The translations under genes and the position numbers were made by a program. The notes below the pieces were generated by a model, which had not been told where the DNA came from, made no database searches, and saw only the letters and a program-made list of their open reading frames with translations. From a virus (taxonomy: Duplodnaviria; Heunggongvirae; Uroviricota; Caudoviricetes), in the IMG/VR virus record IMGVR_UViG_2531839663_000002: a DNA stretch of 9,710 nt. One strand, given 5' to 3'. Positions 1-9,710 of the stretch are shown here, piece after piece (positions within the stretch are counted from its first letter, which is position 1; each line of letters opens with the position of its first letter).

Positions 1-156
1 TTGCATCAAGAACAGCAGTGTCAGCCCTAGGCTCTCGGACTTTGTACCGCTTATCTTGTCTTCAAAAATCAGCTCGCCTCCTGCACAGTTCAACGCATTA
101 CGTTGTAGATCGATTTTCTGGTCATTTGTTGATACGAAAACATAGCCAATAAGCAT
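1..156 (-). CDS. Serine DNA invertase (Pin/Gin/Hin family), 5' portion only; gene runs off the left window edge; carries the same Arg-to-Phe change as the right copy
   Basis: Minus strand of 1..156 is identical to 2203..2358, so it encodes MLIGYVFVSTNDQKIDLQRNALNCAGGELIFEDKISGTKSE...; start codon at 156..154 preceded by a GAGGGAG Shine-Dalgarno. Not in the ORF track because it is open at the edge. Confidence 0.7.
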   Translation of the reverse strand, partial: MLIGYVFVSTNDQKIDLQRNALNCAGGELIFEDKISGTKSESLGLTLLFLMQ

Positions 157-182
157 GGTAGCTCCCTCTGACAAAAGCAGGA

Positions 183-725
183 ATGATGCCATTTTCTCGT
201 TATTTCTGCATTTTCATAAACGTTGGTTTGGGAGAAGGCTCTGCATTACCGGTTGGGGTGCCTGTTCCGTGGCCTTCAGCCACTCCGCCAACAGGCTGGC
301 TGAAATGCAACGGTGCCGCTTTTTCTGCTGAAGAATACCCGGAACTGGCAAAGGCTTATCCGACAAATAAATTGCCTGATTTACGTGGTGAGTTTATTCG
401 TGGCTGGGATGACGGGCGTGGTATTGATGCTGTACGTGCCTTGCTAAGTCTTCAGAATGGAGGAGTGGAATCACACACCCACCAAGGGCAGCTCTTCAGA
501 GTTAGTGATTATCGTACAAAAGAAATACCAGCATCAGAAGTTATGGGAAGAGGATATATTGCAAGCCTGACGCCGGGTGCTGATAGCCCACTTGATTTTG
601 ATGATTATTCTGTATCTTCTAATCCAAATGGATATTTTGTCGGGAATCAGAGAACAACAGCATATGGGATAAATGAAACCCGTCCACGGAATATTGCATT
701 TAACTATATCGTGAGGGCTGCCTGA
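183..725 (+). CDS. Phage tail-fibre C-terminal (variable, receptor-binding) module; orphan segment with no constant N-terminal part upstream
   Basis: 180-aa ORF with tail-collar-like PVPWPSATPPTGWLKCNGAAFSAEEYPELAKAYP...DLRGEFIRGWDDGRG and terminal NIAFNYIVRAA typical of tail-fibre C-termini. First 18 codons lie in the repeat; in-frame stop at 159..161, so no upstream fusion is possible. Stop overlaps next start (TGATG at 723..727). Confidence 0.7.
   Translation: MMPFSRYFCIFINVGLGEGSALPVGVPVPWPSATPPTGWLKCNGAAFSAEEYPELAKAYPTNKLPDLRGEFIRGWDDGRGIDAVRALLSLQNGGVESHTHQGQLFRVSDYRTKEIPASEVMGRGYIASLTPGADSPLDFDDYSVSSNPNGYFVGNQRTTAYGINETRPRNIAFNYIVRAA
211..236. other. Putative invertase crossover site (hix/gix/pix-like), left copy
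   Basis: Reverse complement reads TTCTCCCAAACCAACGTTTATGAAAA, resembling remembered 26-bp sites hixL TTCTTGAAAACCAAGGTTTTTGATAA and gix TTCCTGTAAACCGAGGTTTTGGATAA (shared TTC..AAACC.A.GTTT..GA.AA). Sits at the inner end of the long repeat. Confidence 0.6.
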
Positions 726-1327
726 TGAATAAAGCCGTATTAAATAACGAACTCATTGCCATAAAAGCGGGAGACATTACCATTTATAATTATGATGGTG
801 AAACGCGGGAATATATTTCCACATCAACTGAATATCTTGCGGTTGGCGTCGGTATCCCGGCATGTTCTTGTTTAGATGCACCAGTTACACATAAAGCTGG
901 TTATGCAATCTGCCGTTCTGCAGATTTTAACTCATGGGAATATGTGCCAGACCATCGCGGTGAAATCATCTATAGCACCGAAACAGGAGAATCGAAAGAA
1001 ATCACAGCTCCGGGTGATTACCCTGAAAATACAACCACTATCGCCCCGTTAACGCCATATGATAAATGGGATGGTGAGAAATGGGTGACGGATACTGAGG
1101 CACAGCATAGTGCCGCAGTAGACGCGGCAGAAGCACAGCGCCAGTCACTGATTGATGCAGCAATGGCTTCCATTAGTCTGATTCAGCTGAAATTACAGGC
1201 CGGACGGAAGTTGACGCAGGCAGAAACAACCCGACTTAACGCCGTGCTGGATTACATTGACGCGGTGGCGGCAACAGATACCAGCACCGCGCCGGATGTC
1301 ATCTGGCCTGAACTGCCGGAGGCGTAG
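725..1327 (+). CDS. Tail fibre assembly protein (Tfa/U-like chaperone)
   Basis: 200-aa ORF translationally coupled to the upstream fibre module; C-terminal LDYIDAVAATDTSTAPDVIWPELP matches the conserved Tfa C-terminal motif and is shared with the convergent paralog. Confidence 0.8.
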   Translation: MNKAVLNNELIAIKAGDITIYNYDGETREYISTSTEYLAVGVGIPACSCLDAPVTHKAGYAICRSADFNSWEYVPDHRGEIIYSTETGESKEITAPGDYPENTTTIAPLTPYDKWDGEKWVTDTEAQHSAAVDAAEAQRQSLIDAAMASISLIQLKLQAGRKLTQAETTRLNAVLDYIDAVAATDTSTAPDVIWPELPEA

Positions 1328-1742
1328 GCCATTCAATATCTGGCGCACTGGAGGAATCAACCAGTTCCAGTGCGTCCAGATAATCCAGCCACAAATTATA
1401 TTGCGCCAGTTCATCATCTTTCAGACGACCAATAGCGGCTTTACCGGGCCATTGCTTACTGTTCATGTATTCGTTGGCCTGGTTAATTAGTAGCTGTCTT
1501 TCTGATTCAGTAATTTCAATAAGTTCTTCATGCGTGGGTGGAGGAATATCTGCCCACGCAGGCAGCCCATCATCTCCGGCAATACGGATTTTTCCTTGTG
1601 GCGGTTCAGCCATAAACTCACTGATAATATTTTGATTTACTTCCTTAGCGTCTGATAAATCCCATCCCTCTGATTTATATTTATCAATCATATCCACAGG
1701 GAAAAAAGCATTATGCCTTGCGCTATAAACATATTCGTTCAT
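1299..1742 (-). CDS. Tail fibre assembly protein (Tfa'/U'-like), second allele
   Basis: Minus-strand ORF; probable start is ATG at 1742..1740 (MNEYVYSARH...) with a GGGTGA Shine-Dalgarno about 7 nt upstream (the ORF track begins at an upstream GTG, 1751). C-terminus LWLDYLDALELVDSSSAPDIEWPTPP parallels the other Tfa. 3' ends overlap the + strand tfa by 29 nt. Confidence 0.8.
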   Translation of the reverse strand: MNEYVYSARHNAFFPVDMIDKYKSEGWDLSDAKEVNQNIISEFMAEPPQGKIRIAGDDGLPAWADIPPPTHEELIEITESERQLLINQANEYMNSKQWPGKAAIGRLKDDELAQYNLWLDYLDALELVDSSSAPDIEWPTPPAVQAR

Positions 1743-1762
1743 ATAAATCACCCTGAATAAAA

Positions 1763-2176
1763 TTACTCACCAACAGCCCACCAACTGTAATTCATCGATA
1801 CCGTGTCGCTGGTTGATGACGTCCTGTAAGCAGAATTAAAGCCGGTTAACGTTGGGCCTTCTGCAGTCATCACGAACCCTCGCCCAGCGCCTAAAGGCGC
1901 ACCGCCATCACCAGAATGAGTAAGCATGGCGCAGTCCGCTTTTTTGGGGAAAGGGATGCTGAATGTAATTCTCATTGTTTGCGTCGATAATGTCGGCGTA
2001 ACCGCACCACTACCATATTGCAGGATTTTCCCGTTGGGTAATTTCATCCATCCATCACCACTGGCAAAAGAGGCCATGTCCGGTATCTGATTTTCCCCTG
2101 TCCCTACATCCCGTTTTGCCGCTTCTCCCAAACCAACGTTTATGAAAATGCAGAAATAACGAGAAAATGGCATCAT
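1763..2176 (-). CDS. Phage tail-fibre C-terminal (variable) module, alternative allele
   Basis: 137-aa ORF starting with the same 18 residues (MMPFSRYFCIFINVGLGE) as 183..725 because both begin in the repeat, then diverging; followed 20 nt downstream by its own tfa gene. Confidence 0.7.
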   Translation of the reverse strand: MMPFSRYFCIFINVGLGEAAKRDVGTGENQIPDMASFASGDGWMKLPNGKILQYGSGAVTPTLSTQTMRITFSIPFPKKADCAMLTHSGDGGAPLGAGRGFVMTAEGPTLTGFNSAYRTSSTSDTVSMNYSWWAVGE

Positions 2177-2358
2177 TCCTGCTTTTGTCAGAGGGAGCTA
2201 CCATGCTTATTGGCTATGTTTTCGTATCAACAAATGACCAGAAAATCGATCTACAACGTAATGCGTTGAACTGTGCAGGAGGCGAGCTGATTTTTGAAGA
2301 CAAGATAAGCGGTACAAAGTCCGAGAGCCTAGGGCTGACACTGCTGTTCTTGATGCAA
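2122..2358. repeat. Right copy of the inverted repeat (IR-R)
   Basis: Exact reverse complement of 1..237. Confidence 0.9.
2123..2148. other. Putative invertase crossover site (hix/gix/pix-like), right copy
   Basis: TTCTCCCAAACCAACGTTTATGAAAA on the + strand; exact inverted partner of 211..236. Confidence 0.6.
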
Positions 2359-2394
2359 ATTAAAGGATTTAATAGTGAGTTGTGGCCTTACTAA
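2203..2394 (+). pseudogene. Serine DNA invertase (Pin/Gin/Hin family) remnant: N-terminal ~40 codons recognisable, then divergent and terminated
   Basis: MLIGYVFVSTNDQKIDLQRNALNCAGGELIFEDKISGTKSE closely matches remembered Gin/Pin N-termini (MLIGYVRVSTNDQ..DLQRNAL..IFEDK.SG). The conserved Arg before the catalytic Ser is Phe (TTC). Frame stops at 2392..2394 after about 64 codons, against roughly 190 aa for an intact invertase. GAGGGAG Shine-Dalgarno precedes ATG 2203. Confidence 0.8.
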
Positions 2395-2403
2395 TGTAAG
2401 GCC
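2384..2403. terminator. Hairpin between the convergent invertase remnant and the GmrSD-like gene; possible terminator
   Basis: 8-bp stem GGCCTTAC / GTAAGGCC with 4-nt loop TAAT, then a moderately T-rich stretch on the + strand (gctataatcattttatt). Lies between the stop at 2392..2394 and the minus-strand stop at 2428..2430. Confidence 0.35.
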
Positions 2404-2427
2404 GCTATAATCATTTTATTAATTGCA

Positions 2428-4317
2428 TTAATCGTGTTTTGGCCATACTTTCAATGCAATTTCCCCCAACTTTTTACCCCGCTCCAGGATTTCACCCTCA
2501 TCCCATTTATCCTTAAGTATAAGTGGTATGTTCAGTCGTAGATTGGTGTGGACGATGAGAGCATCACGTTTTTTCAGAAATACAGCATTCTGAACAGAAC
2601 GGTTTACGCTAAGGTTAAGCAAAGTTAGATTTCCCAACGTAGCTATCGCTTGTTGCCGTTTCCTTACCAGTAGCTGCTCAGGGGTAAGATCTGTTCCAGA
2701 CAGAACAATTTGGTTCAATACCGTTGCATCTGAATTTGTCACCATATGACCATTTTCGAGAGGCCAACAGGAATACCAACTTTGAGGCATAAGATGATCG
2801 ATATCGAGATTGGAAAGATTTGGAACATCAGGCTTCTCTGTCTTCACTTGGCGACAAAGTTCTCTTTCAAGTTCCGTTAACATTGAGCGCATTTTCGGTG
2901 CGTCGAGCCTGCCAGGATAAAGTGGAGCATTGATGCAAGCATTGAGAAATTCTGAGTCACCAGGCCAACGTGAGGCTTCGCCATTTAAGCTATTGAGGAT
3001 ATTACGTAACTCAACACTGGAAATTTCCGTTTTAGACAAGTGCCGCAATACATTCATAAATACATTGTTGTAATTCTTTGGCGTCAGGCCACATACGGCT
3101 CTTCGTACTACGTAGGAGACAAGATCATTATACATGGCTGCTTTCTCATCATCGGCGATATTAGCTATCGAAATGAACAAAGCAAGCGGATAAAGTGTCG
3201 TCACATCATAGGCTGCGATGCGATGTCCAAAGTGTGAGATGGGGGTTGTGCCAAAACCACCAACTAATTCTTTATATTGTGATGCATATTGTTTGAGGCG
3301 CTTTACTTGCAGATCAGCTCGTTGTGAAGGCAAGTCCTTACTTACATAATCACGATACTCATTGTAAAGACGAGACAGATCAATTTCACGTTGCCTTTCT
3401 GATTGCAATGTCGCATGCACTAGCCACTCCATGCGTGGTTTATTAATACGTCCACGGCGTTGCCTTTCCGACCAGTATGTATCTTCAAAGCTCTTCCACT
3501 CATTTTCATATAATTCAATAGCATTAATATTTTCATGCTCAGCGCACATAAAGATGTAGTTGCGAATAAGATCCGTGGCATGAAGTTCCGCCCCTCGGCC
3601 ATTTAATGTTTCAAAAATTATTTGGGCATCATCTTCAGCTTCGAGAAATATGCTTACCAGTTTCAGATCCGTCAAGACAGCCTCAATTAGTGCTACAGCA
3701 TTTTCATGTGGTGAGTACTGTTCTATTTTAATCCATTTTATAAAGGCTTCAGTAAAAAACCATAATGCCTCTAGTGACGGCGGGTGGTTGAAATGTTTAC
3801 GTAACGTACCATGTTGCGTGAAGCTATCAGAAAATACATCACGGAGATCGTCAATGTTTTCAACATTAAAACTTTGAATAAAATGAGTTTGGTCTCGAAA
3901 AGTTGGCCACAGTTTGAAGCATTCTACCTTTTTATTTCGCATAGTTGCTTCGTTTGTATTTTTCAAGCAAGTCAATACTAACCCTTCCAAATCAGAAAGG
4001 CCTGTAGCACGCAATGATAATCGAATGGATGCCAGAATATATTGAAGAGTGGTTAAACGTTGCTGGCCGTCAATAATATGTATGGTATCTACACCTAACA
4101 AGCTGTTTTTGAGTTGAGGTTCCAGCACCACCGCGCCAAGGAAATGGGGAGTTGGTTTTGTTCCCAAAAGTCGGCTATGTGCTTTTTCGAAGATATCCTC
4201 CAGCAAAGCTGACCATTGGTTTTGTTGCGTCCATACGTAGGCACGTTGATAGAATGGAACACGATATTGTCGTTGATTTTGGAAAAGTTGCTGGATGGTT
4301 AGCGTTTCGGATTTCAT
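2428..4317 (-). CDS. GmrSD-family type IV (modification-dependent) restriction endonuclease, DUF262 + DUF1524 architecture
   Basis: 629-aa ORF. N-terminal region has the DUF262 hallmark DGQQR (aa 83-87, ...IHIIDGQQRLTTL) with upstream YRVPFYQRAYVW; C-terminal region has an HNH/His-Me-like DIDHLMPQSW ... NLTLLNLSVNRSVQN pattern typical of DUF1524. Confidence 0.8.
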   Translation of the reverse strand: MKSETLTIQQLFQNQRQYRVPFYQRAYVWTQQNQWSALLEDIFEKAHSRLLGTKPTPHFLGAVVLEPQLKNSLLGVDTIHIIDGQQRLTTLQYILASIRLSLRATGLSDLEGLVLTCLKNTNEATMRNKKVECFKLWPTFRDQTHFIQSFNVENIDDLRDVFSDSFTQHGTLRKHFNHPPSLEALWFFTEAFIKWIKIEQYSPHENAVALIEAVLTDLKLVSIFLEAEDDAQIIFETLNGRGAELHATDLIRNYIFMCAEHENINAIELYENEWKSFEDTYWSERQRRGRINKPRMEWLVHATLQSERQREIDLSRLYNEYRDYVSKDLPSQRADLQVKRLKQYASQYKELVGGFGTTPISHFGHRIAAYDVTTLYPLALFISIANIADDEKAAMYNDLVSYVVRRAVCGLTPKNYNNVFMNVLRHLSKTEISSVELRNILNSLNGEASRWPGDSEFLNACINAPLYPGRLDAPKMRSMLTELERELCRQVKTEKPDVPNLSNLDIDHLMPQSWYSCWPLENGHMVTNSDATVLNQIVLSGTDLTPEQLLVRKRQQAIATLGNLTLLNLSVNRSVQNAVFLKKRDALIVHTNLRLNIPLILKDKWDEGEILERGKKLGEIALKVWPKHD

Positions 4318-4874
4318 TGTTTACCTATAAGTGACATTCCACAAGAGTAAGAAATTCATCTGAGTCAGAATAATCATTTTTATGTAGTCATGATACAGTG
4401 TATTTGTTGCTGGTGAAGTAAAAACGAGAAATCCCGCTTTTGAATGCTGACGTGCTACGGTTTCATTGGATATTCTCTTTTGTCTGTTCTCCATTGCGTC
4501 GGTGTTTTTTCGAGATTGTTAGCACATTGTTGCTGCTGTTTTTTTATCCAAGCGCTGCTAAATCATTGTAGATGGCACTATCGGGTATTGAAGCTGCAGA
4601 CATGTCGTATACAATAGTCAGCTGCGACTGGCTGGTGAACTTCCGATAGTGCGAGTATTGAATGATTTCCAACTGTTATCGATTTTGCGTATTTTTTGCA
4701 TGAGAGGATTTTTACCTCCTCCCACCGATCCTCCATGGCTTTACGCCAGTGTCTCTGGTCTGCTATGTACCAGAAGCGGAAGTTGTGTCTGTTAGTATGA
4801 TATTATAATTACACTCGCTTATAATAAGCCCACAATACAGATATAAAAATATCTCAACGCTTGGGAGTTAACAA

Positions 4875-5336
4875 ATGATTAACTTTACTGAAATTGATAG
4901 TGACGGTGAAGCCTGGGAGTCATTTGCCCGTGATTTTCTTGAAGAACTTGGCTTTTATATTGAATCCGCGCCAGATAGAGGTGCAGATGGAGGTAAAGAT
5001 CTTTTAATCACAGAGCAATTGCAAGGTCAGTTAAATAAATATAAATTTCGTTGGCTTGTTAGCTGTAAACATTATGCAACAAGTAAAAAATCAGTTTCAG
5101 AAAAGGATGAGATTAATATACAAGAACGTATTGATGGATTCAATGCCGACGGATTTATTGGATTTTACTCAACACTGCCAAGTAGTGGTTTAAATTCAAG
5201 AATGACGCAATTAAAAGAGAATGGAAAAATAAAGGACTTTCGATTCTTTGATGGTAAATTAATTGAAAATCACTTAGTCAGAATTGGTTACTCAAAACTA
5301 CTCCTTAGATACTTTCCTGAGAGCTATAAAAAATAA
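4875..5336 (+). CDS. Small stand-alone Mrr-cat-like (PD-(D/E)xK fold) restriction-endonuclease domain protein
   Basis: 153-aa ORF with GGGAG Shine-Dalgarno about 8 nt before the ATG. Motifs GADGGKDLL (4980..5006) and FRWLVSCKHY resemble the Mrr catalytic core (GDGGIDL ... QCKRY). No N-terminal DNA-binding domain. Confidence 0.65.
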   Translation: MINFTEIDSDGEAWESFARDFLEELGFYIESAPDRGADGGKDLLITEQLQGQLNKYKFRWLVSCKHYATSKKSVSEKDEINIQERIDGFNADGFIGFYSTLPSSGLNSRMTQLKENGKIKDFRFFDGKLIENHLVRIGYSKLLLRYFPESYKK

Positions 5337-5347
5337 AACCCAAGCAT

Positions 5348-5785
5348 TTGATTTTTGATAAGTACTTACCTATAAAATGTGATCGTTGTGGAAAGGACTT
5401 AATAGAAAACCATCATGAAGAAAATTATGATGGCATTGTGTGCAATGCAGAGATCATACACGATGACAAACCAAATGAGGTGATAGCGGTTTATTATGCG
5501 TGTAAAGGTGATTGTGATAAGCATTTTGAGGATTATTTTTGGAATGAATATAAAGCGATTACGAGATGGCAGGATATAAGTGATCTAGCCATCCCATTAT
5601 TCTATCTCAAATGGATTATGGGGACATTTAATGAACTTGAGTATGGAAGGAAAACATATACCAAAGAAGCCTTCAATAAAACAAAGGAGATAACATTAGC
5701 GCTATCTCAAATTGTTATGAGAGAAATGACAGAAAAAGAAAGAGAAAGAGTGATGGCTTTGAATTCACTACCTGATTACATATAA
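5348..5785 (+). CDS. Cys-rich hypothetical protein (possible C4 zinc ribbon), likely co-transcribed with the upstream Mrr-cat gene
   Basis: 145-aa ORF starting 12 nt after the upstream stop, same strand. Only a TTG start is in frame and no clear Shine-Dalgarno is seen. CxxC (CDRC) plus CxxxC (CKGDC) could form a zinc ribbon; no recognisable family. Confidence 0.5.
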   Translation: MIFDKYLPIKCDRCGKDLIENHHEENYDGIVCNAEIIHDDKPNEVIAVYYACKGDCDKHFEDYFWNEYKAITRWQDISDLAIPLFYLKWIMGTFNELEYGRKTYTKEAFNKTKEITLALSQIVMREMTEKERERVMALNSLPDYI

Positions 5786-5958
5786 ATTATATTTACTAAC
5801 ATTTGAACTAGCGCATCTTTGGTGCAGAGACACCACCATCTTGGGGACACTGTGAGGCCACTGGCTTCCCAACTTATCGTTATACAGGATAATAAGGTGC
5901 TCCAGGGTAGCTATGAACTTGATGTTACGTCTGCGATTTGCTCATAAGGGACAACCAT

Positions 5959-5991
5959 ACTCAAATCTCCCACATTGCAGGAGATTTGAGT
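5959..5991 (+). promoter_or_regulatory. Hairpin sequestering the Shine-Dalgarno of the tyrosine recombinase gene
   Basis: Perfect 12-bp inverted repeat ACTCAAATCTCC (5959..5970) / GGAGATTTGAGT (5980..5991) with 9-nt loop; the right arm contains GGAG and ends one base before ATG 5992. Confidence 0.5.
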
Positions 5992-6594
5992 ATGAACACG
6001 TCACCGTGGAACAAAGACCGTATCATCGGCCAAAAAAGACCACTTCAGATATCTCATATCTGGGGGATCCGAATCCGGCTTGAACTGGAAGGTAAAACGC
6101 GCGATTTAGCTCAGTTCGATATGGCCCTGGACAGTAAGCTACGAGGCTGTGATCTGGTCAAACTCAAAGTATCTGATGTTGCATATGGTAGCTCTGCTTC
6201 AAGCAGAGCTACGGTGCTGCAACAGAAAACCGGTAGCCCTGTGCAGTTTGAGATAACCAAAGGGACAAGAGAAGCTGTTGCTGCATTGATAATGCTTGGC
6301 AATTTGCATAGTAAAGACTTCTTGTTTCGGTTTCTGGTCGGAACTAATTAGCTCATATCTACCCGGCAATACAACCGAATTTTTCATGGGTGGGTAGAAA
6401 AGCTTGGTCTCGAAGATTCGCTTTACAGCACTCATTCCATGAGAAGAACAAAACCTTACCTGATCTACAAGAAAACCAAGAATCTTCGGGTGATCCAACT
6501 TCTGTTGGGCCATAAGAAACTGGAAAGCACAGTCCGTTATCTGGGTATTGAAGTAGATGATGTGTTAGAGATCTCTGAATCGATTGAAGTCTAA
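5992..6594 (+). pseudogene. Compact (~200 aa) tyrosine recombinase/integrase (catalytic domain only) interrupted by an in-frame TAG at 6349..6351
   Basis: One frame runs 5992..6594 with a single TAG at 6349..6351. Before it: LRGCDLVKLKVSDV...QQKTGSPVQFEITKGTREAV (box I Arg). After it: HSMRRTKPYLIYKKTKNLRVIQLLLGHKKLESTVRYLGIEVDD (H-x-x-R, His, RY Tyr). The downstream part is missing from the ORF track only for lack of a start codon. Confidence 0.8.
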
Positions 6595-6600
6595 GGTTGT

Positions 6601-6622
6601 CAGGGCTGCAACAACAGCCCTG
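6601..6622 (+). other. GC-rich stem-loop just after the recombinase stop codon
   Basis: CAGGGCTG (6601..6608), loop CAACAA, CAGCCCTG (6615..6622); no following T-tract, so not a canonical intrinsic terminator. A TTGACA hexamer follows at 6633..6638. Confidence 0.35.
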
Positions 6623-6717
6623 TGCCAGGAGTTGACACTGTTAGCATCGCGCTATGTTAATTTATGTTGAGCAGTTAAAAATGATAATGTAGTTTATATG
6701 GATAATCAGTTTATAGA

Positions 6718-7599
6718 GTGGGTGAGATGGAACTAGATGAAACACTTGAAGTTATCAAAAATAATTTTAGTAATAATCAGAAGAAACTATTTAAAAGGAT
6801 TGAGCCAGCCACTAACCGTCAAGTAGCTATCGGTCTTATTAGTTTACAAGGAGTGGAAAAAACATCTCAGGCTGAGATAGAGGTAATTGCCGGCCTCATA
6901 TCTCAGTTTAGTCCATTGGAAATCGATAGTTTTCAAAATTCACCACGACGAATAACTCTGAAAGGTCAATTCCCAAACGGACATATTGTTTATATCGAGC
7001 CTCAGTATAAGGTTGGCAATATAAACCCAAAAGCCCAGCCTTGGGCAATAGACCTTGTCCTTAGACTAAATAGATGGATTGGTCAAGATTTGGTTGAGAT
7101 TGCTGCTATTGGCATCGAGTATGATGGCCACATAGCTCATTATGTGGAAAGTAAAATTAAGTCTACTTACAAGCGTGATGCAGTAATAACTAGTAACGAA
7201 GGATTTCAATCGATTAGGATCTCACCAGAACAATGGAAATCGTCTAAAGAGGATCTTAAGAAGGCAATTAAAAAGTATTTTGAACATCACATAAAAAAAA
7301 TTGAAAAAGTTCAACTAAGCACAATAAACGCCCAAAATTTCAACAATTTTATTTATGAAAATGAAAATGAAGTGATATCCACTGTAACTTGCCCTTTATG
7401 TAATGGAAAAGGCAGTTTAGCGGGAGAAGATTGTCCGATCTGTAATGGAATGGGATCCGTAAAAAGATATATTGCTGCAAAGGTGAATCTTTCTAATTAT
7501 GAAAAATTCACTTGTCCTGACTGCAGGAATATAAAATTAGATTGCAGAACCTGCAATGGTGAAGGATCAATTAGCAGAGAAAAAGCATTAGAAATGTAA
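6718..7599 (+). CDS. Fusion protein: DUF559/Vsr-like PD-(D/E)xK nuclease domain plus C-terminal DnaJ-type CxxCxGxG zinc finger
   Basis: 293-aa ORF (GTG 6718 or ATG 6727 start, ambiguous). Central AIDLVL...AIGIEYDGHIAHY...KRDAVITSNEGFQSIRIS matches the DUF559 pattern (IExDGxxH ... RDxx ... GxxxxR). C-terminus has CPLCNGKG, CPICNGMG, CPDCRN, CRTCNGEG (about 7390..7566), as in the DnaJ cysteine-rich domain. Confidence 0.7.
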   Translation: MGEMELDETLEVIKNNFSNNQKKLFKRIEPATNRQVAIGLISLQGVEKTSQAEIEVIAGLISQFSPLEIDSFQNSPRRITLKGQFPNGHIVYIEPQYKVGNINPKAQPWAIDLVLRLNRWIGQDLVEIAAIGIEYDGHIAHYVESKIKSTYKRDAVITSNEGFQSIRISPEQWKSSKEDLKKAIKKYFEHHIKKIEKVQLSTINAQNFNNFIYENENEVISTVTCPLCNGKGSLAGEDCPICNGMGSVKRYIAAKVNLSNYEKFTCPDCRNIKLDCRTCNGEGSISREKALEM

Positions 7600-7904
7600 T
7601 GATAAAAGTAAACCTAAATAATTTAGTGTAATGTCTGCTTTTCGCTCATAACAGACATAAACTTCAGTTATGGCATAAAGGTATGCATGCTGGGTGGGGA
7701 AAGTATGAAGGAAAAGAAGACTGCTGCGCCGTTTGTCGTCACGTTTATCTTCATTGGCTATGTAAGTCGTAATACAAGGTGGGACAAAACTGAGACACAT
7801 AAGGCCTCGCAATGGCTTGCAAGGCTTTACATGTTTTGATGTGGTGGGACGTGTGAGCGCAGTGTTGATGGGGTAATGCTTTGAATTAGAAGCGGATTCT
7901 TATA

Positions 7905-7950
7905 ATTCGTAATGCGAAGGTCGTAGGTTCGACTCCTATTATCGGCACCA
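7905..7950 (+). other. 3' fragment (~46 nt) of tRNA-Thr(CGU), thrW-like; attachment-site remnant marking the end of an integrated element
   Basis: ATTCGTAATGCGAAGGTCGTAGGTTCGACTCCTATTATCGGCACCA matches the 3' part of E. coli thrW as remembered (anticodon-loop CGT, T-arm GGTTCGACTCC, acceptor end with CCA). Sequence upstream of 7905 does not match the tRNA 5' half, so this is not an intact gene. Confidence 0.75.
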
Positions 7951-8403
7951 TCTTTTATAATAAAATCATCAAGTTATTATTGCATTGTTTTGCTTTGTTC
8001 AACACTAATGTGCAATTCTGCGCGTTGTAGATGTGGCAAAATTGTGGCAAGTACAGTGAGATTGTTTGTGGCTCAATGCAAGGGTATGCTAACGGCACGT
8101 GTTACCTTGTAGCTCCCGTCGATCTTGTCTTTTGAGCAATATTACTACTTTGATGGTTTCTGGTTACGGATGTTGTCAGTCCAGTTCGCAGCCAGCACGG
8201 TTTGACCTAAAGGATGTTATTACAATAACCTACGCAGGCATTCAAACACGTTTAGTCTGCCATTTAGGTTATTGCATTCACTTGACGACCCATTTGCATT
8301 TCACTTAGTCATATCTAACAAAAAAATGCATCCGATACCCTACTATTGACAGGCAGCTTTGAGCGATCTGCTGACATTACCAGCATAGTGGCGTATTAAT
8401 CAT

Positions 8404-8637
8404 CTAGGAGCAGGTCACAATCTCAGCCATCAAGCTCTGGACTAACCCAACTGCGAAACGCTGCAGACTAACAAGACCATCTTCGTCGTCCTCGCCGTAG
8501 AAACGTGTGAAGGCAACCGATCGCACCTTCTCATAGTCTTCACCATGTTCATCGCCTCCAAAACGCTTGGCGAGCGCCGCCAGCACGTACTTCAAAGACT
8601 CTTGGTCCTCCTCTGAACGAATAGAGCTATGACTTCG
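8404..8637 (-). pseudogene. Orphan 3' gene fragment of unknown function
   Basis: Minus-strand frame open from a stop at 8638..8640 to the stop at 8404, with no ATG or Shine-Dalgarno at its 5' end (the ORF track starts at a TTG). Acidic sequence ...GGDEHGEDYEKVRSVAFTRFYGEDDEDG...; no family recognised. Could be spurious. Confidence 0.25.
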
Positions 8638-8804
8638 CTAGAGACAAAGTCGCTTACTTAGCTTCCCTGTTTCGATGTTGCAACTCACATATTTTTAACT
8701 TTCAGAATGTGTTACCCAATAGTTCGTGCTAATGCTACTATTTGTATTCAATCGGATTAATGATGTTGTTACGCGAGTCCATTGAACTAAACATAAGGGA
8801 GTAT

Positions 8805-9330
8805 ATGGGGTTAGCTGAAACATTAGTTAGTATTCCGCAGTCTGAAAGAGGCGGTGAGATTGCTCAACGTGGGTTTGACTATCAAACTTGCTGGGCTTTA
8901 TCTCAAATGCTGGAATATGAACTAGATGAAAAGAACTATGTGTTTATCTTCGAATATCATGATGATGTTCTTATTCTTGATGACGAAGTTTCTCCAACAC
9001 AACTCACATTTGCTCAAGTAAAAACAAGAGAGAAACACTGGACTGCATCCACTCTTAGTAATAGCACCAAGAAGAACCCAATATCTATCATCGGTAAGTT
9101 ATTTATTCATCAAAAGAATTTCGCCGAATATTCACCCAAGCTCCTTTTTGTTACTAATGCTTCTTTCAATCTATGTGAGGAAAACGGTGGTAAGTCTTGT
9201 TTTGGTGCAAATGAAGTCAAAGTGGAGTATCAGACGAGCTTTAAGAAAGCAATCAAAGATCAAGTAAAGCTTGATGACTCCAGTATCGATCTTTCTGTTA
9301 TGCGTTTCGTTCAATCCTCATTAAGCCTAG
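8805..9330 (+). pseudogene. PD-(D/E)xK-like nuclease-domain gene (resembles DUF4297-type domains of defence proteins), 3'-truncated by IS5
   Basis: ATG at 8805 with AAGGGA Shine-Dalgarno at 8795..8800. Motifs GFDYQTCWAL, EYHDDVLILDD and FAQVKT fit a D...(E/Q)xK core. The frame continues into the IS5 terminus from 9331; the last residues GKVRTSP are IS-encoded, so the native C-terminus is missing. Confidence 0.6.

Positions 9331-9710
<380 letters not shown>

Follow-up and report, generated by a model that had tools for sequence, protein, structure and literature searches.

A gmrSD restriction gene beside a truncated pin invertase in e14/SfII-like prophages and the alternative occupants of its position

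Genes and features of the locus

The stretch of DNA analysed here (the window, 9,710 nucleotides of IMG/VR record IMGVR_UViG_2531839663_000002) carries an intact gmrSD gene between a remnant of the tail-fibre invertase gene pin and the right end of a prophage. Table 1 summarizes the features of the locus. The sequence-only reading had proposed a GmrSD enzyme with DUF262 and DUF1524 domains, to be checked by HMM searches, and this family call was right. Both domains were found far above the Pfam cutoffs, namely GmrSD_N (PF03235, formerly DUF262) at residues 8-256 (E 8.2e-34, 117.9 bits against a cutoff of 33.2, profile positions 1-199 of 199) and GmrSD_C (PF07510, formerly DUF1524) at residues 451-619 (E 1.6e-18, 67.3 bits against a cutoff of 23). 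The PADLOC model mREase_IV (PDLC03655) matched the protein end to end (1481 bits). The DGQQR motif of the DUF262 domain occupies residues 83-87, and the (D/E)H..N signature of the DUF1524 His-Me/HNH finger is kept as D507, H508 and N522. The PADLOC model SspE reached E ~1e-14 over the first ~100 residues only, and a PDB sequence search returned weak DUF262 matches only (9jfl_B, E 1.5e-6), the BrxU chain being absent among them. The exact protein is present on 249 contigs and is identical to WP_000834398.1 of AH65, whose RefSeq name is merely 'DUF262 domain-containing protein'. About 5.5% of complete Escherichia coli genomes have gmrSD.

Table 1. Features of the gmrSD locus, with positions counted from the first letter of the window.
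Feature	Position	Strand	Description
Left crossover site	223..238	+	TTGGTTTGGGAGAAGG, exact match to e14 site
Invertible tail-fibre segment	239..2120		Pfam Collar, Caudo_TAP (twice), Gp53-like_C
Collar-type fibre C-terminus	to 725	+	Pfam Collar
Tail-fibre assembly gene	725-1327	+	Pfam Caudo_TAP
Second assembly gene	1299-1751	-	Pfam Caudo_TAP
gp53-like fibre C-terminus	1763-2176	-	Pfam Gp53-like_C
Right crossover site	2121..2136	-	TTGGTTTGGGAGAAGC, 1 mismatch to e14 site
pin' remnant, Pin/Gin-family serine invertase	2203..2394	+	Resolvase N-terminal match and pinE alignment
Hairpin	2384..2403		GGCCTTAC-TAAT-GTAAGGCC, 8-bp stem, 4-nt loop
gmrSD ORF	2428..4317	-	629 aa, ATG start, no internal stop codon
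Upstream region	4318..4506	-	accompanies gmrSD in all loci compared
Small 57-aa ORF	4321-4494	-	abuts gmrSD start
Sigma-70-like promoter match	-35 TTCACC 4417-4412, -10 TATCAT 4395-4390	-	consensus match only
Mrr-like endonuclease	4875-5785		frameshifted
att core, 47 bp	7905..7951		partial copy of tRNA-Thr thrW 3' end; prophage right end

The left part of the window has the same layout as the stfP-tfaP-tfaE-stfE segment of e14. A search with the crossover pattern, the site sequence being taken from PMC12529663, gave two matches where 0.01 were expected. The left end of the window shows the junction expected for the other orientation of the tail-fibre segment, and positions 1-2500 were found intact in none of the complete genomes (best coverage 84%). 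An inverted duplication in ET201, in which two gmrSD places were flagged, was considered as the cause of this left end and rejected, the second copy not lying within 12 kb.

The invertase remnant that had been noticed beside gmrSD was confirmed. The ORF at 2167-2394 (+) matches the Resolvase N-terminal domain with E 1.2e-05 over profile positions 2-52 of 145 only, and from the ATG at 2203 it aligns to codons 1 to ~50 of pinE (2203 to ~2353), the intact references being those of K-12 and APEC 102026. Past ~2353 the ORF runs into unrelated sequence and then a stop codon; most of the catalytic domain and the entire DNA-binding domain are missing. In AH65, UM146 and SW4848 the same remnant is annotated 'recombinase family protein, missing C-terminus'.

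A hairpin had also been said to mark the junction. It is real and its position exact: the 71 nt around it fold with -15.2 kcal/mol (z = -3.4; 1 of 200 shuffles folds equally well), and four loci from three integration sites share it. It is not the breakpoint itself, however, lying ~30 bp beyond the last pin-homologous base. Within the 75-bp spacer from the pin remnant to the gmrSD stop codon, it stands 24 nt downstream of that stop (minus strand), and its loop contains the stop codon of the pin' pseudo-ORF. The hairpin is thus part of the 3' flank of the gmrSD cassette and not a breakpoint marker. A Rho-independent terminator was rejected, there being no U-tract (the minus-strand tail reads ACAACUCACU) and no call by the consensus scan on either strand. 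On the other side of the gene, an AGGT Shine-Dalgarno sequence lies ~7 nt 5' of the ATG, and colinear homology to AH65, UM146 and SW4848 extends to at least 4506.

At the right, the 47 bp of the att core recur in a second locus (L015) beside an integrase, where they overlap a tRNA-Thr(CGT); no complete tRNA was found in the window. Homology to related prophages stops at 7951. The att core thus marks the right end of the prophage, and the cargo region runs from pin' to att (~2354-7904). Between gmrSD and att lie ~3.6 kb of further cargo (the Mrr-like REase gene with its frameshift, the remnant of an integrase and a protein of 290 aa), so that gmrSD is not the final gene ahead of att. Taken together, the prophage would be of the e14/SfII-like kind with a Mu-type tail, inserted at thrW, and gmrSD would be a solo cargo gene at its right, pin-proximal end.

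Comparison with characterised GmrSD enzymes

The closest characterised enzymes are Eco94GmrSD (WP_000834395, E. coli STEC_94C) and CT596 GmrSD, with which the family was founded; the sequences of both were taken from Fig. S1 of PMC4437046. Over the full length, each is 97.0% identical to the window protein (19/629 residues differ), with equal length, the same domain order, the DGQQR motif and the D507-H508-N522 triad. These three residues are essential by mutagenesis in Eco94GmrSD (PMC4437046) and have the same numbering in the window allele. Both enzymes cut T4 and T4gt DNA with stimulation by ATP/dNTP, restrict T4 delta-ip1 more than 10^6-fold, are relieved by IPI*, and restrict phage when cloned singly (PMC4437046). 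The characterised enzymes are likewise prophage-borne, 'immediately downstream' of tail-fibre genes in an SfII-like prophage, and for CT596 the location beside a phage invertase and tail-fibre genes has already been reported (PMC4437046; Bair & Black 2007 as cited there); no mention of the truncation of the invertase or of the e14/mcrA equivalence was found in the papers on these enzymes (He et al. 2015, PMC4437046). Judged by sequence, the window gene is a near-identical copy of a characterised E. coli GmrSD; the enzyme is not new and the finding is largely known. That the gene is essentially the prototype had been missed by the sequence-only reading.

By analogy with these 97%-identical enzymes, the N-terminal DUF262/ParB-like domain with its DGQQR motif would use NTP or dNTP, and the C-terminal DUF1524 His-Me finger would cut DNA containing 5-hydroxymethylcytosine or glucosyl-5hmC, cleavage being NTP-stimulated. 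A resident prophage with such a gene may shield its host from T-even phages, which in turn may escape by injecting a matching inhibitor such as T4 IPI*, to which the window allele is likewise expected to be sensitive. More distant relatives share the combination of DUF262 with DUF1524 and the NTP-stimulated nuclease activity. BrxU (the GmrSD homologue of an E. fergusonii BREX island) and SspE are only distantly similar and are located in BREX or phosphorothioate islands, whereas the window GmrSD lies in a prophage; the substrate range of BrxU is broader.

A closer allele, UTI89_C2960 (the UT enzyme), shared with UM146, is 93.5% identical (41/629 differ); its prophage, at ssrA, has the same junction of pin' with gmrSD, hairpin included. 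Over the first ~210 codons of this allele dS is ~0.6, against ~0.08 for the remainder, which indicates a more distant donor for the N-terminus. UTI89 GmrSD was inactive in vitro and is reported to be IPI*-insensitive, and strain UTI89 restricts neither T4 nor IPI-deficient T4. Therefore, close alleles can differ in phage range and inhibitor sensitivity. It is conceivable, though rather unlikely, that the window allele also departs from Eco94 and CT596 in these respects while keeping the family chemistry, for instance by escaping IPI* or by not restricting T4. It sides with UTI89 at 10 of the 44 positions that separate Eco94 from UTI89, and the changes Q47H, S51L, N200Q, H201Y, Q204H, K280T and K285R are unique to it. 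Among its 19 substitutions relative to Eco94, K280T touches a residue that was mutated in the Eco94 study as E278A/K280A (PMC4437046). Each GmrSD variant is blocked by one cognate T4 internal protein only, Ip1, Ip2 or Ip3 (PMC12373910). Compared with the SW4848 allele, the N-terminal 210 codons give a dN/dS of 0.41 (a ratio resting on small counts, 12 nonsynonymous and 8 synonymous) against 0.06-0.08 elsewhere. Nevertheless, the overall identity to IPI*-sensitive enzymes is 97%, and every tested catalytic residue is conserved.

It is highly improbable that gmrSD is an inactive relic or depends on a partner, be it the 57-aa ORF or the Mrr-like endonuclease. The small ORF does adjoin the gmrSD start and is open in AH65, ET201 and SW4848, and an E. 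coli GmrSD system requiring two genes is known from ECOR17 (PMC12373910). As a partner gene, however, it was rejected, having no PADLOC match and being unannotated in all the RefSeq records inspected. The window copy of the Mrr-like gene carries a frameshift, the genes past the ~190 bp conserved upstream of gmrSD vary from locus to locus, and Eco94GmrSD and CT596 GmrSD are active against phage as sole cloned genes. Purifying selection on gmrSD (dN/dS 0.09-0.17) speaks against relic status, and the gene is intact although the REase and integrase genes beside it are decayed.

The pin'-gmrSD junction and its possible origin

A total of 303 complete E. coli genomes share the breakpoint and hairpin, which lie at no fewer than three chromosomal sites and are identical at thrW/pao, ssrA and icd; against these 303 genomes with the complete junction stand 300-306 with the gene. 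In one ancestral event, a gmrSD cassette consisting of the hairpin, the gene and a ~190-bp promoter region would have replaced the 3' two-thirds of pin together with whatever lay downstream. The earlier suggestion that insertion of gmrSD may have truncated the invertase fits the invariant single breakpoint, with a two-step history as a less probable alternative. The single-event origin is favoured by parsimony only.

In such a two-step history, an unrelated deletion during prophage decay would have truncated pin, and gmrSD would have arrived beside the stump later. This appears rather unlikely, and the evidence is mixed. Truncation of pinE in the absence of gmrSD exists: in strain JNU the gene was independently truncated at nucleotide 201, and a DinI-like gene adjoins the remnant. 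The last ~20 pin-homologous bases (~2335-2353) are far more diverged than the rest and could be an older scar. A species-level genome scan found just two further loci with relatives of gmrSD. One, 46% identical, is in a Nitrospira MAG; the other, 79% identical, is in a mutY-mltC island of an Enterobacteriaceae bacterium with pin absent nearby, which indicates that gmrSD moves on its own. On the other hand, all 303 junction-bearing genomes have one breakpoint, and a pin stump ending at this position was found in none of the examined loci that lack gmrSD.

Under the single replacement that is preferred here, the fixed pin'-gmrSD module would later have spread among related prophages through homologous recombination, in which the conserved 5' end of pin and the tail-fibre module probably served as the left arm. 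A search of a phage genome collection found no gmrSD cassette; the pin 5' end alone was matched, in four Escherichia myophages. Transfer of the cassette by an active phage is therefore not documented among deposited phage genomes. The first ~150 bp of pin may have been kept by selection rather than by accident. On this reading, the stretch would hold the crossover site and, by analogy with gin, hin and cin, a putative Fis-dependent enhancer, so that invertases from other prophages could keep flipping the tail-fibre segment. The other-orientation junction at the left end of the window would fit such inversion in trans.

An exchangeable position beside pin

The order pinE-mcrA in e14, to which the position of gmrSD had been likened, was confirmed in the K-12 record. 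McrA (EcoKMcrA of the cryptic prophage e14) is a Type IV modification-dependent HNH nuclease that likewise lies directly after the tail-fibre invertase at the right end of its prophage, but it has 277 aa and an unrelated N-terminal recognition domain, and it stands next to an intact pinE. Furthermore, mcrA runs in the same direction as pinE, whereas gmrSD and pin' converge. The positional equivalence is borne out by the proposed synteny comparison. The icd-site prophage of SW4848 equals K-12 e14 up to pinE nucleotide 136 (L003 position 6821), continues with a 2.8-kb gmrSD cassette in place of the 3' part of pinE and mcrA, and rejoins e14 at 8406, 8 bp before the prophage end at 8413, beside icdC-iraM. 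This nucleotide-level replacement was seen in a sister genome and not in the thrW-site prophage of the window itself.

The idea of a conserved defence slot with swapped cargo is strengthened by a third occupant. Intact pinE is followed by McrA in 329 genomes and by PD-T4-3 in 577, which makes the latter the commonest. PD-T4-3 is CMoRE, a Type IV enzyme that is encoded by one gene and breaks down 5hmC/5ghmC DNA (PMC12923530). It is encoded on the minus strand like gmrSD and differs from it in its GIY-YIG nuclease fold, its length of 257 aa and the intact pinE beside it; its annotation reads 'LEM-3-like GIY-YIG domain-containing protein'. In the window, the invertase directly before gmrSD belongs to the Pin family and borders an invertible stf/tfa segment whose crossover sites are of the e14 type. 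Since the same position in sister prophages is filled by McrA or PD-T4-3/CMoRE, it would be a slot in which Type IV restriction genes are exchanged. Altogether, McrA, CMoRE/PD-T4-3 or GmrSD lies beside pin in ~1,200 of the ~1,430-1,480 E. coli genomes that have pin of this type, and the remaining loci may therefore be mined for unrecognised anti-T-even genes. The papers searched contained nothing specific on a defence hotspot next to pin or the tail-fibre genes. The account as a whole, with gmrSD as solo cargo, a single replacement of the pin 3' part, spread of the module and an exchangeable Type IV slot, is considered very probable. A stronger version can be put forward only tentatively, namely that e14/SfII-like prophages have at their pin-proximal end a dedicated slot, exchangeable by recombination, for Type IV restriction genes directed at modified cytosine, with retention of ~150 bp of pin perhaps under selection.

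These results leave the understanding of the GmrSD mechanism unchanged and provide a correct, ready-made annotation for a protein of the founding-enzyme type. The comparison of the slot adds a modest but useful point, in that three unrelated Type IV nucleases, McrA, CMoRE and GmrSD, replace one another at a single prophage position. Carriage of gmrSD matters for predicting resistance to T-even therapeutic phages and bears on the injected inhibitor (Ip1-like) that a phage needs. The slot is a natural case in which defence genes are exchanged with a conserved phage gene as the anchor, and a small, well-delimited site in which to seek more anti-T-even genes.

The slot after pin at the prophage right end

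In the K-12 record, e14 runs ymfQ-stfP-tfaP-tfaE-stfE-pinE-mcrA-prophage end, the invertase-then-mcrA order given in the sequence-only reading; that reading's observations of the gene, its domains, the invertase remnant, the hairpin and the e14 order are borne out in full by ORF, Pfam, PADLOC, folding and K-12 record data. Its proposal that gmrSD stands in the mcrA position finds its strongest sequence evidence in strain SW4848, whose e14-like prophage occupies the icd site and, like that of K-12, is followed by icdC, iraM and ymgK. When this prophage is aligned with K-12 e14, homology extends up to nucleotide 136 of pinE, is interrupted by 2,779 bp containing gmrSD and returns 8 bp before the annotated e14 end. 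Thus, the cassette substitutes exactly for the 3' part of pinE and mcrA. The same breakpoint between the truncated invertase gene (pin') and gmrSD, together with the hairpin, is found in the window at a prophage end with a thrW-derived att core, in AH65 adjoining the pao genes, in UM146 at the ssrA site and in SW4848 at the icd site.

Among the loci inspected, intact pinE is followed by mcrA in K-12 and by a minus-strand 'LEM-3-like GIY-YIG' gene in APEC 102026, E54, MS 69-1 and strain 120. Over its whole length, the protein of this gene fits PADLOC PD-T4-3 (E 2.4e-140), which has since been characterised as CMoRE, a Type IV endonuclease with specificity for 5hmC/5ghmC DNA (PMC12923530). The suggestion of swapped cargo is upheld by counts at this position: the pinE-PD-T4-3 junction occurs in 577 complete genomes, pinE-mcrA in 329 (many of them K-12 derivatives) and pin'-gmrSD in 303. 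Combined, these make up about 1,200 genomes out of some 1,430-1,480 that match this pin type; the slot is thus mostly taken by three enzymes that are unrelated yet belong to one functional class. Exceptions were also seen. In JNU (NZ_CP083263.1; 4454-5015 of the comparison locus), at a prophage end beside prfC, pinE has been cut short independently at nucleotide 201, with a DinI-like gene next in line; like pin' of the window, the remnant preserves the invertase gene's 5' end. Other prophage types at that chromosomal locus have PD-T4-3 accompanied by a type II R-M system.

Origin of the pin truncation and the hairpin

A 251-bp probe spanning the pin'-gmrSD boundary was searched in complete E. 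coli genomes and found complete in 303, the number carrying gmrSD; in intact-pinE genomes the match stops at window position 2324-2338. That the breakpoint is the same in 303 genomes and at no fewer than three integration sites favours one ancestral replacement, later spread by recombination. The earlier idea that insertion of gmrSD truncated the invertase fits this invariance, yet the data do not separate a single event from deletion within pin followed by later insertion of gmrSD, and independent truncation of pin does occur elsewhere, in JNU. A 79%-identical gmrSD in Enterobacteriaceae bacterium B14 (3399-8644 of the comparison locus) lies in a mutY-mltC genomic island; alongside are an integrase fragment and a 494-aa protein without Pfam match, type VI secretion genes are adjacent, and no pin or tail-fibre genes occur within 6 kb. 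DNA homology between B14 and the window stops inside the 3' end of gmrSD, ahead of the hairpin, so that hairpin and pin stump are elements of the E. coli prophage cassette rather than of gmrSD itself.

The hairpin lies exactly where it had been read, and the region around it is more stable when folded than 199 of 200 shuffles (z = -3.4). As a marker of the junction it is displaced, lying 24 nt past the gmrSD stop and about 30 bp from where pin-like sequence ends. Candidate roles for it are to supply the gmrSD transcript with its 3' end or to stop read-through from the tail-fibre operon. It has no U-tract, and the terminator scan called no terminator there.

Features of the window
Feature	Position	Strand	Details
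e14 crossover sequence	223-238		TTGGTTTGGGAGAAGG; pattern search
e14 crossover sequence	2121-2136		TTGGTTTGGGAGAAGG, 1 mismatch; pattern search
pin' ORF adjoining gmrSD	2167-2394	+	Resolvase N-terminal domain, first ~50 positions alone matched
Hairpin	2384-2403		8-bp stem GGCCTTAC/GTAAGGCC, 4-nt loop
gmrSD ORF	2428-4317	-	629 codons, uninterrupted
Mrr_cat restriction endonuclease	4875-5785	+	Two ORFs; frameshift by 1-nt deletion near 5328
Tyrosine-recombinase remnant	5992-6594	+	200 aa; C-to-T at 6349, Gln120 to stop vs APEC 102026
290-aa protein	6727-7599	+	Intact; identical to APEC 102026 WP_000417871.1
Prophage att core	7905-7951		47-bp partial copy of tRNA-Thr(CGT) thrW 3' end
Lamassu LmuA (DUF4297)	8742-9353	+	Past att; model positions 1-175 of 361, about half; interrupted by IS5
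IS5-family element	9363-9710		Cuts LmuA; transposase gene extends to window end

Tail-fibre module and neighbouring cargo

Pfam content and crossover sequences (site sequence from PMC12529663) identify the left part of the window as an e14-type invertible tail-fibre module, comprising a collar-type fibre C-terminus, two tail-fibre assembly genes and a gp53-like fibre C-terminus, and followed by the pin remnant. Window 1-237 is a perfect inverted copy of 2122-2358 (237 nt), clipped by the window start. Compared with strain L014 (99.95% and 99.98% identity), the window reads reverse-complemented pin', invertible segment, pin' and gmrSD; normal genomes have a tail-fibre constant region left of the segment, where the window has the reverse copy of pin'. 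No complete genome shows this arrangement for this tail-fibre segment. On one reading, a culture in which both segment orientations were present gave rise to a chimeric contig end here, which would imply inversion in trans despite the dead pin'; PinQ and PinR do invert the e14 segment in trans (PMC12529663). On the other reading, pin' genuinely flanks the segment on both sides, similar to strain E54. There (NZ_CM180513.1; 2019-4972 of the comparison locus), pinE stands at each end of the invertible segment in opposite orientations, with an Avs2 defence gene past the left copy, in what looks like a recombination product of two pin-bearing prophages.

A second copy of the att core stands next to the integrase in L015; in the window the core shows where the prophage ends on the right, and three genes lie between it and gmrSD. 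The Mrr_cat endonuclease is intact (303 aa) in APEC 102026 and several other genomes, and this unbroken protein gave no PADLOC match; its split form in the window reflects either pseudogene formation or a sequencing error. The 290-aa protein, with a weak REase_MTES_1575-like middle region, a C-terminal array of four CxxC pairs (a DnaJ-type zinc finger that scores under the Pfam threshold) and, also C-terminal, a match to PADLOC candidate PDC-M01B (E 6e-15), may be an uncharacterised defence gene of the same cargo region. Strain LR-17-1 and several others share the truncated LmuA/IS5 arrangement at 100% identity.

The GmrSD allele and its expected action

Both domains named from sequence were recovered well over curated cutoffs, GmrSD_N (PF03235, formerly DUF262) at residues 8-256 (E 8.2e-34) and GmrSD_C (PF07510, formerly DUF1524) at residues 451-619 (E 1.6e-18), and PADLOC mREase_IV (PDLC03655) covers residues 1 to 629 (1481 bits). 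Eco94GmrSD (WP_000834395, 629 aa) was characterised, and CT596 GmrSD re-described as a single chain, by He et al. 2015 (PMC4437046). Compared with the sequences in Fig. S1 of that paper, the window protein differs from each at 19/629 positions (97.0% identity); it differs from the UTI89 enzyme at 41. The DGQQR motif lies at residues 83-87, and D507, H508 and N522, numbered as in Eco94GmrSD, are kept; alanine substitutions there abolished cleavage (He et al. 2015, PMC4437046). The window gene is an allele of the family-defining enzyme, more than a mere family member. The exact protein, identical to AH65 WP_000834398.1 (0 amino-acid differences), occurs in 249 contigs in public databases, labelled just 'DUF262 domain-containing protein'. 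In a set of 5,426 complete E. coli genomes, about 300 have the gene, chromosomal in every case. Its pairwise dN/dS (0.09-0.17) indicates purifying selection. A 57-codon ORF (4321-4494, minus strand), containing the predicted gmrSD promoter, stops 4 nt ahead of the gmrSD start codon; it is open in AH65 and ET201 and also in SW4848, whose copy has an apparent in-frame one-codon deletion; it has no PADLOC match and is absent from the annotation of the RefSeq records compared.

With Mg2+, Eco94GmrSD cuts T4 (glc-5hmC) and T4gt (5hmC) DNA and spares lambda DNA, cleaving between two modified cytosines on opposite strands 17-23 bp apart, with strong stimulation by ATP and dNTPs and none by gamma-S-ATP (PMC4437046). 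In vivo, it restricts T4 delta-ip1 >10^6-fold and wild-type T4 just 15-20-fold owing to the inhibitor IPI* that T4 injects; the over-expressed enzyme is toxic to RecA-deficient cells (PMC4437046). The window allele would act like these 97%-identical relatives, by NTP-stimulated cutting of 5hmC/glc-5hmC DNA and restriction of T4. GmrSD variants are each inhibited by one alone of the T4 internal proteins Ip1-3 (PMC12373910); therefore the 19 substitutions, which include K280T (residue 280 was mutated in the Eco94 study; PMC4437046) and several positions matching UTI89, may shift phage range or inhibitor sensitivity, the main functional uncertainty. The UTI89/UM146-type gene (6984-8891 of the UM146 locus, against window 2428-4317) is a mosaic, with dS of about 0.6 in the first ~210 codons vs about 0.08 in the remainder, a sign of recombination within the gene, the donor being more distant; this exchanged N-terminal region may explain why the UT enzyme is reported to be insensitive to IPI*. 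In the UM146 copy, a 1-nt insertion alters the final residues.

The Eco94 gene itself lies directly 3' of tail-fibre genes in an SfII-like prophage (He et al. 2015, PMC4437046). The e14/mcrA equivalence, the pin truncation and the alternation of three enzymes, not found in the literature searched, are incremental comparative points that fit the well-known carriage of defence cargo at prophage ends.
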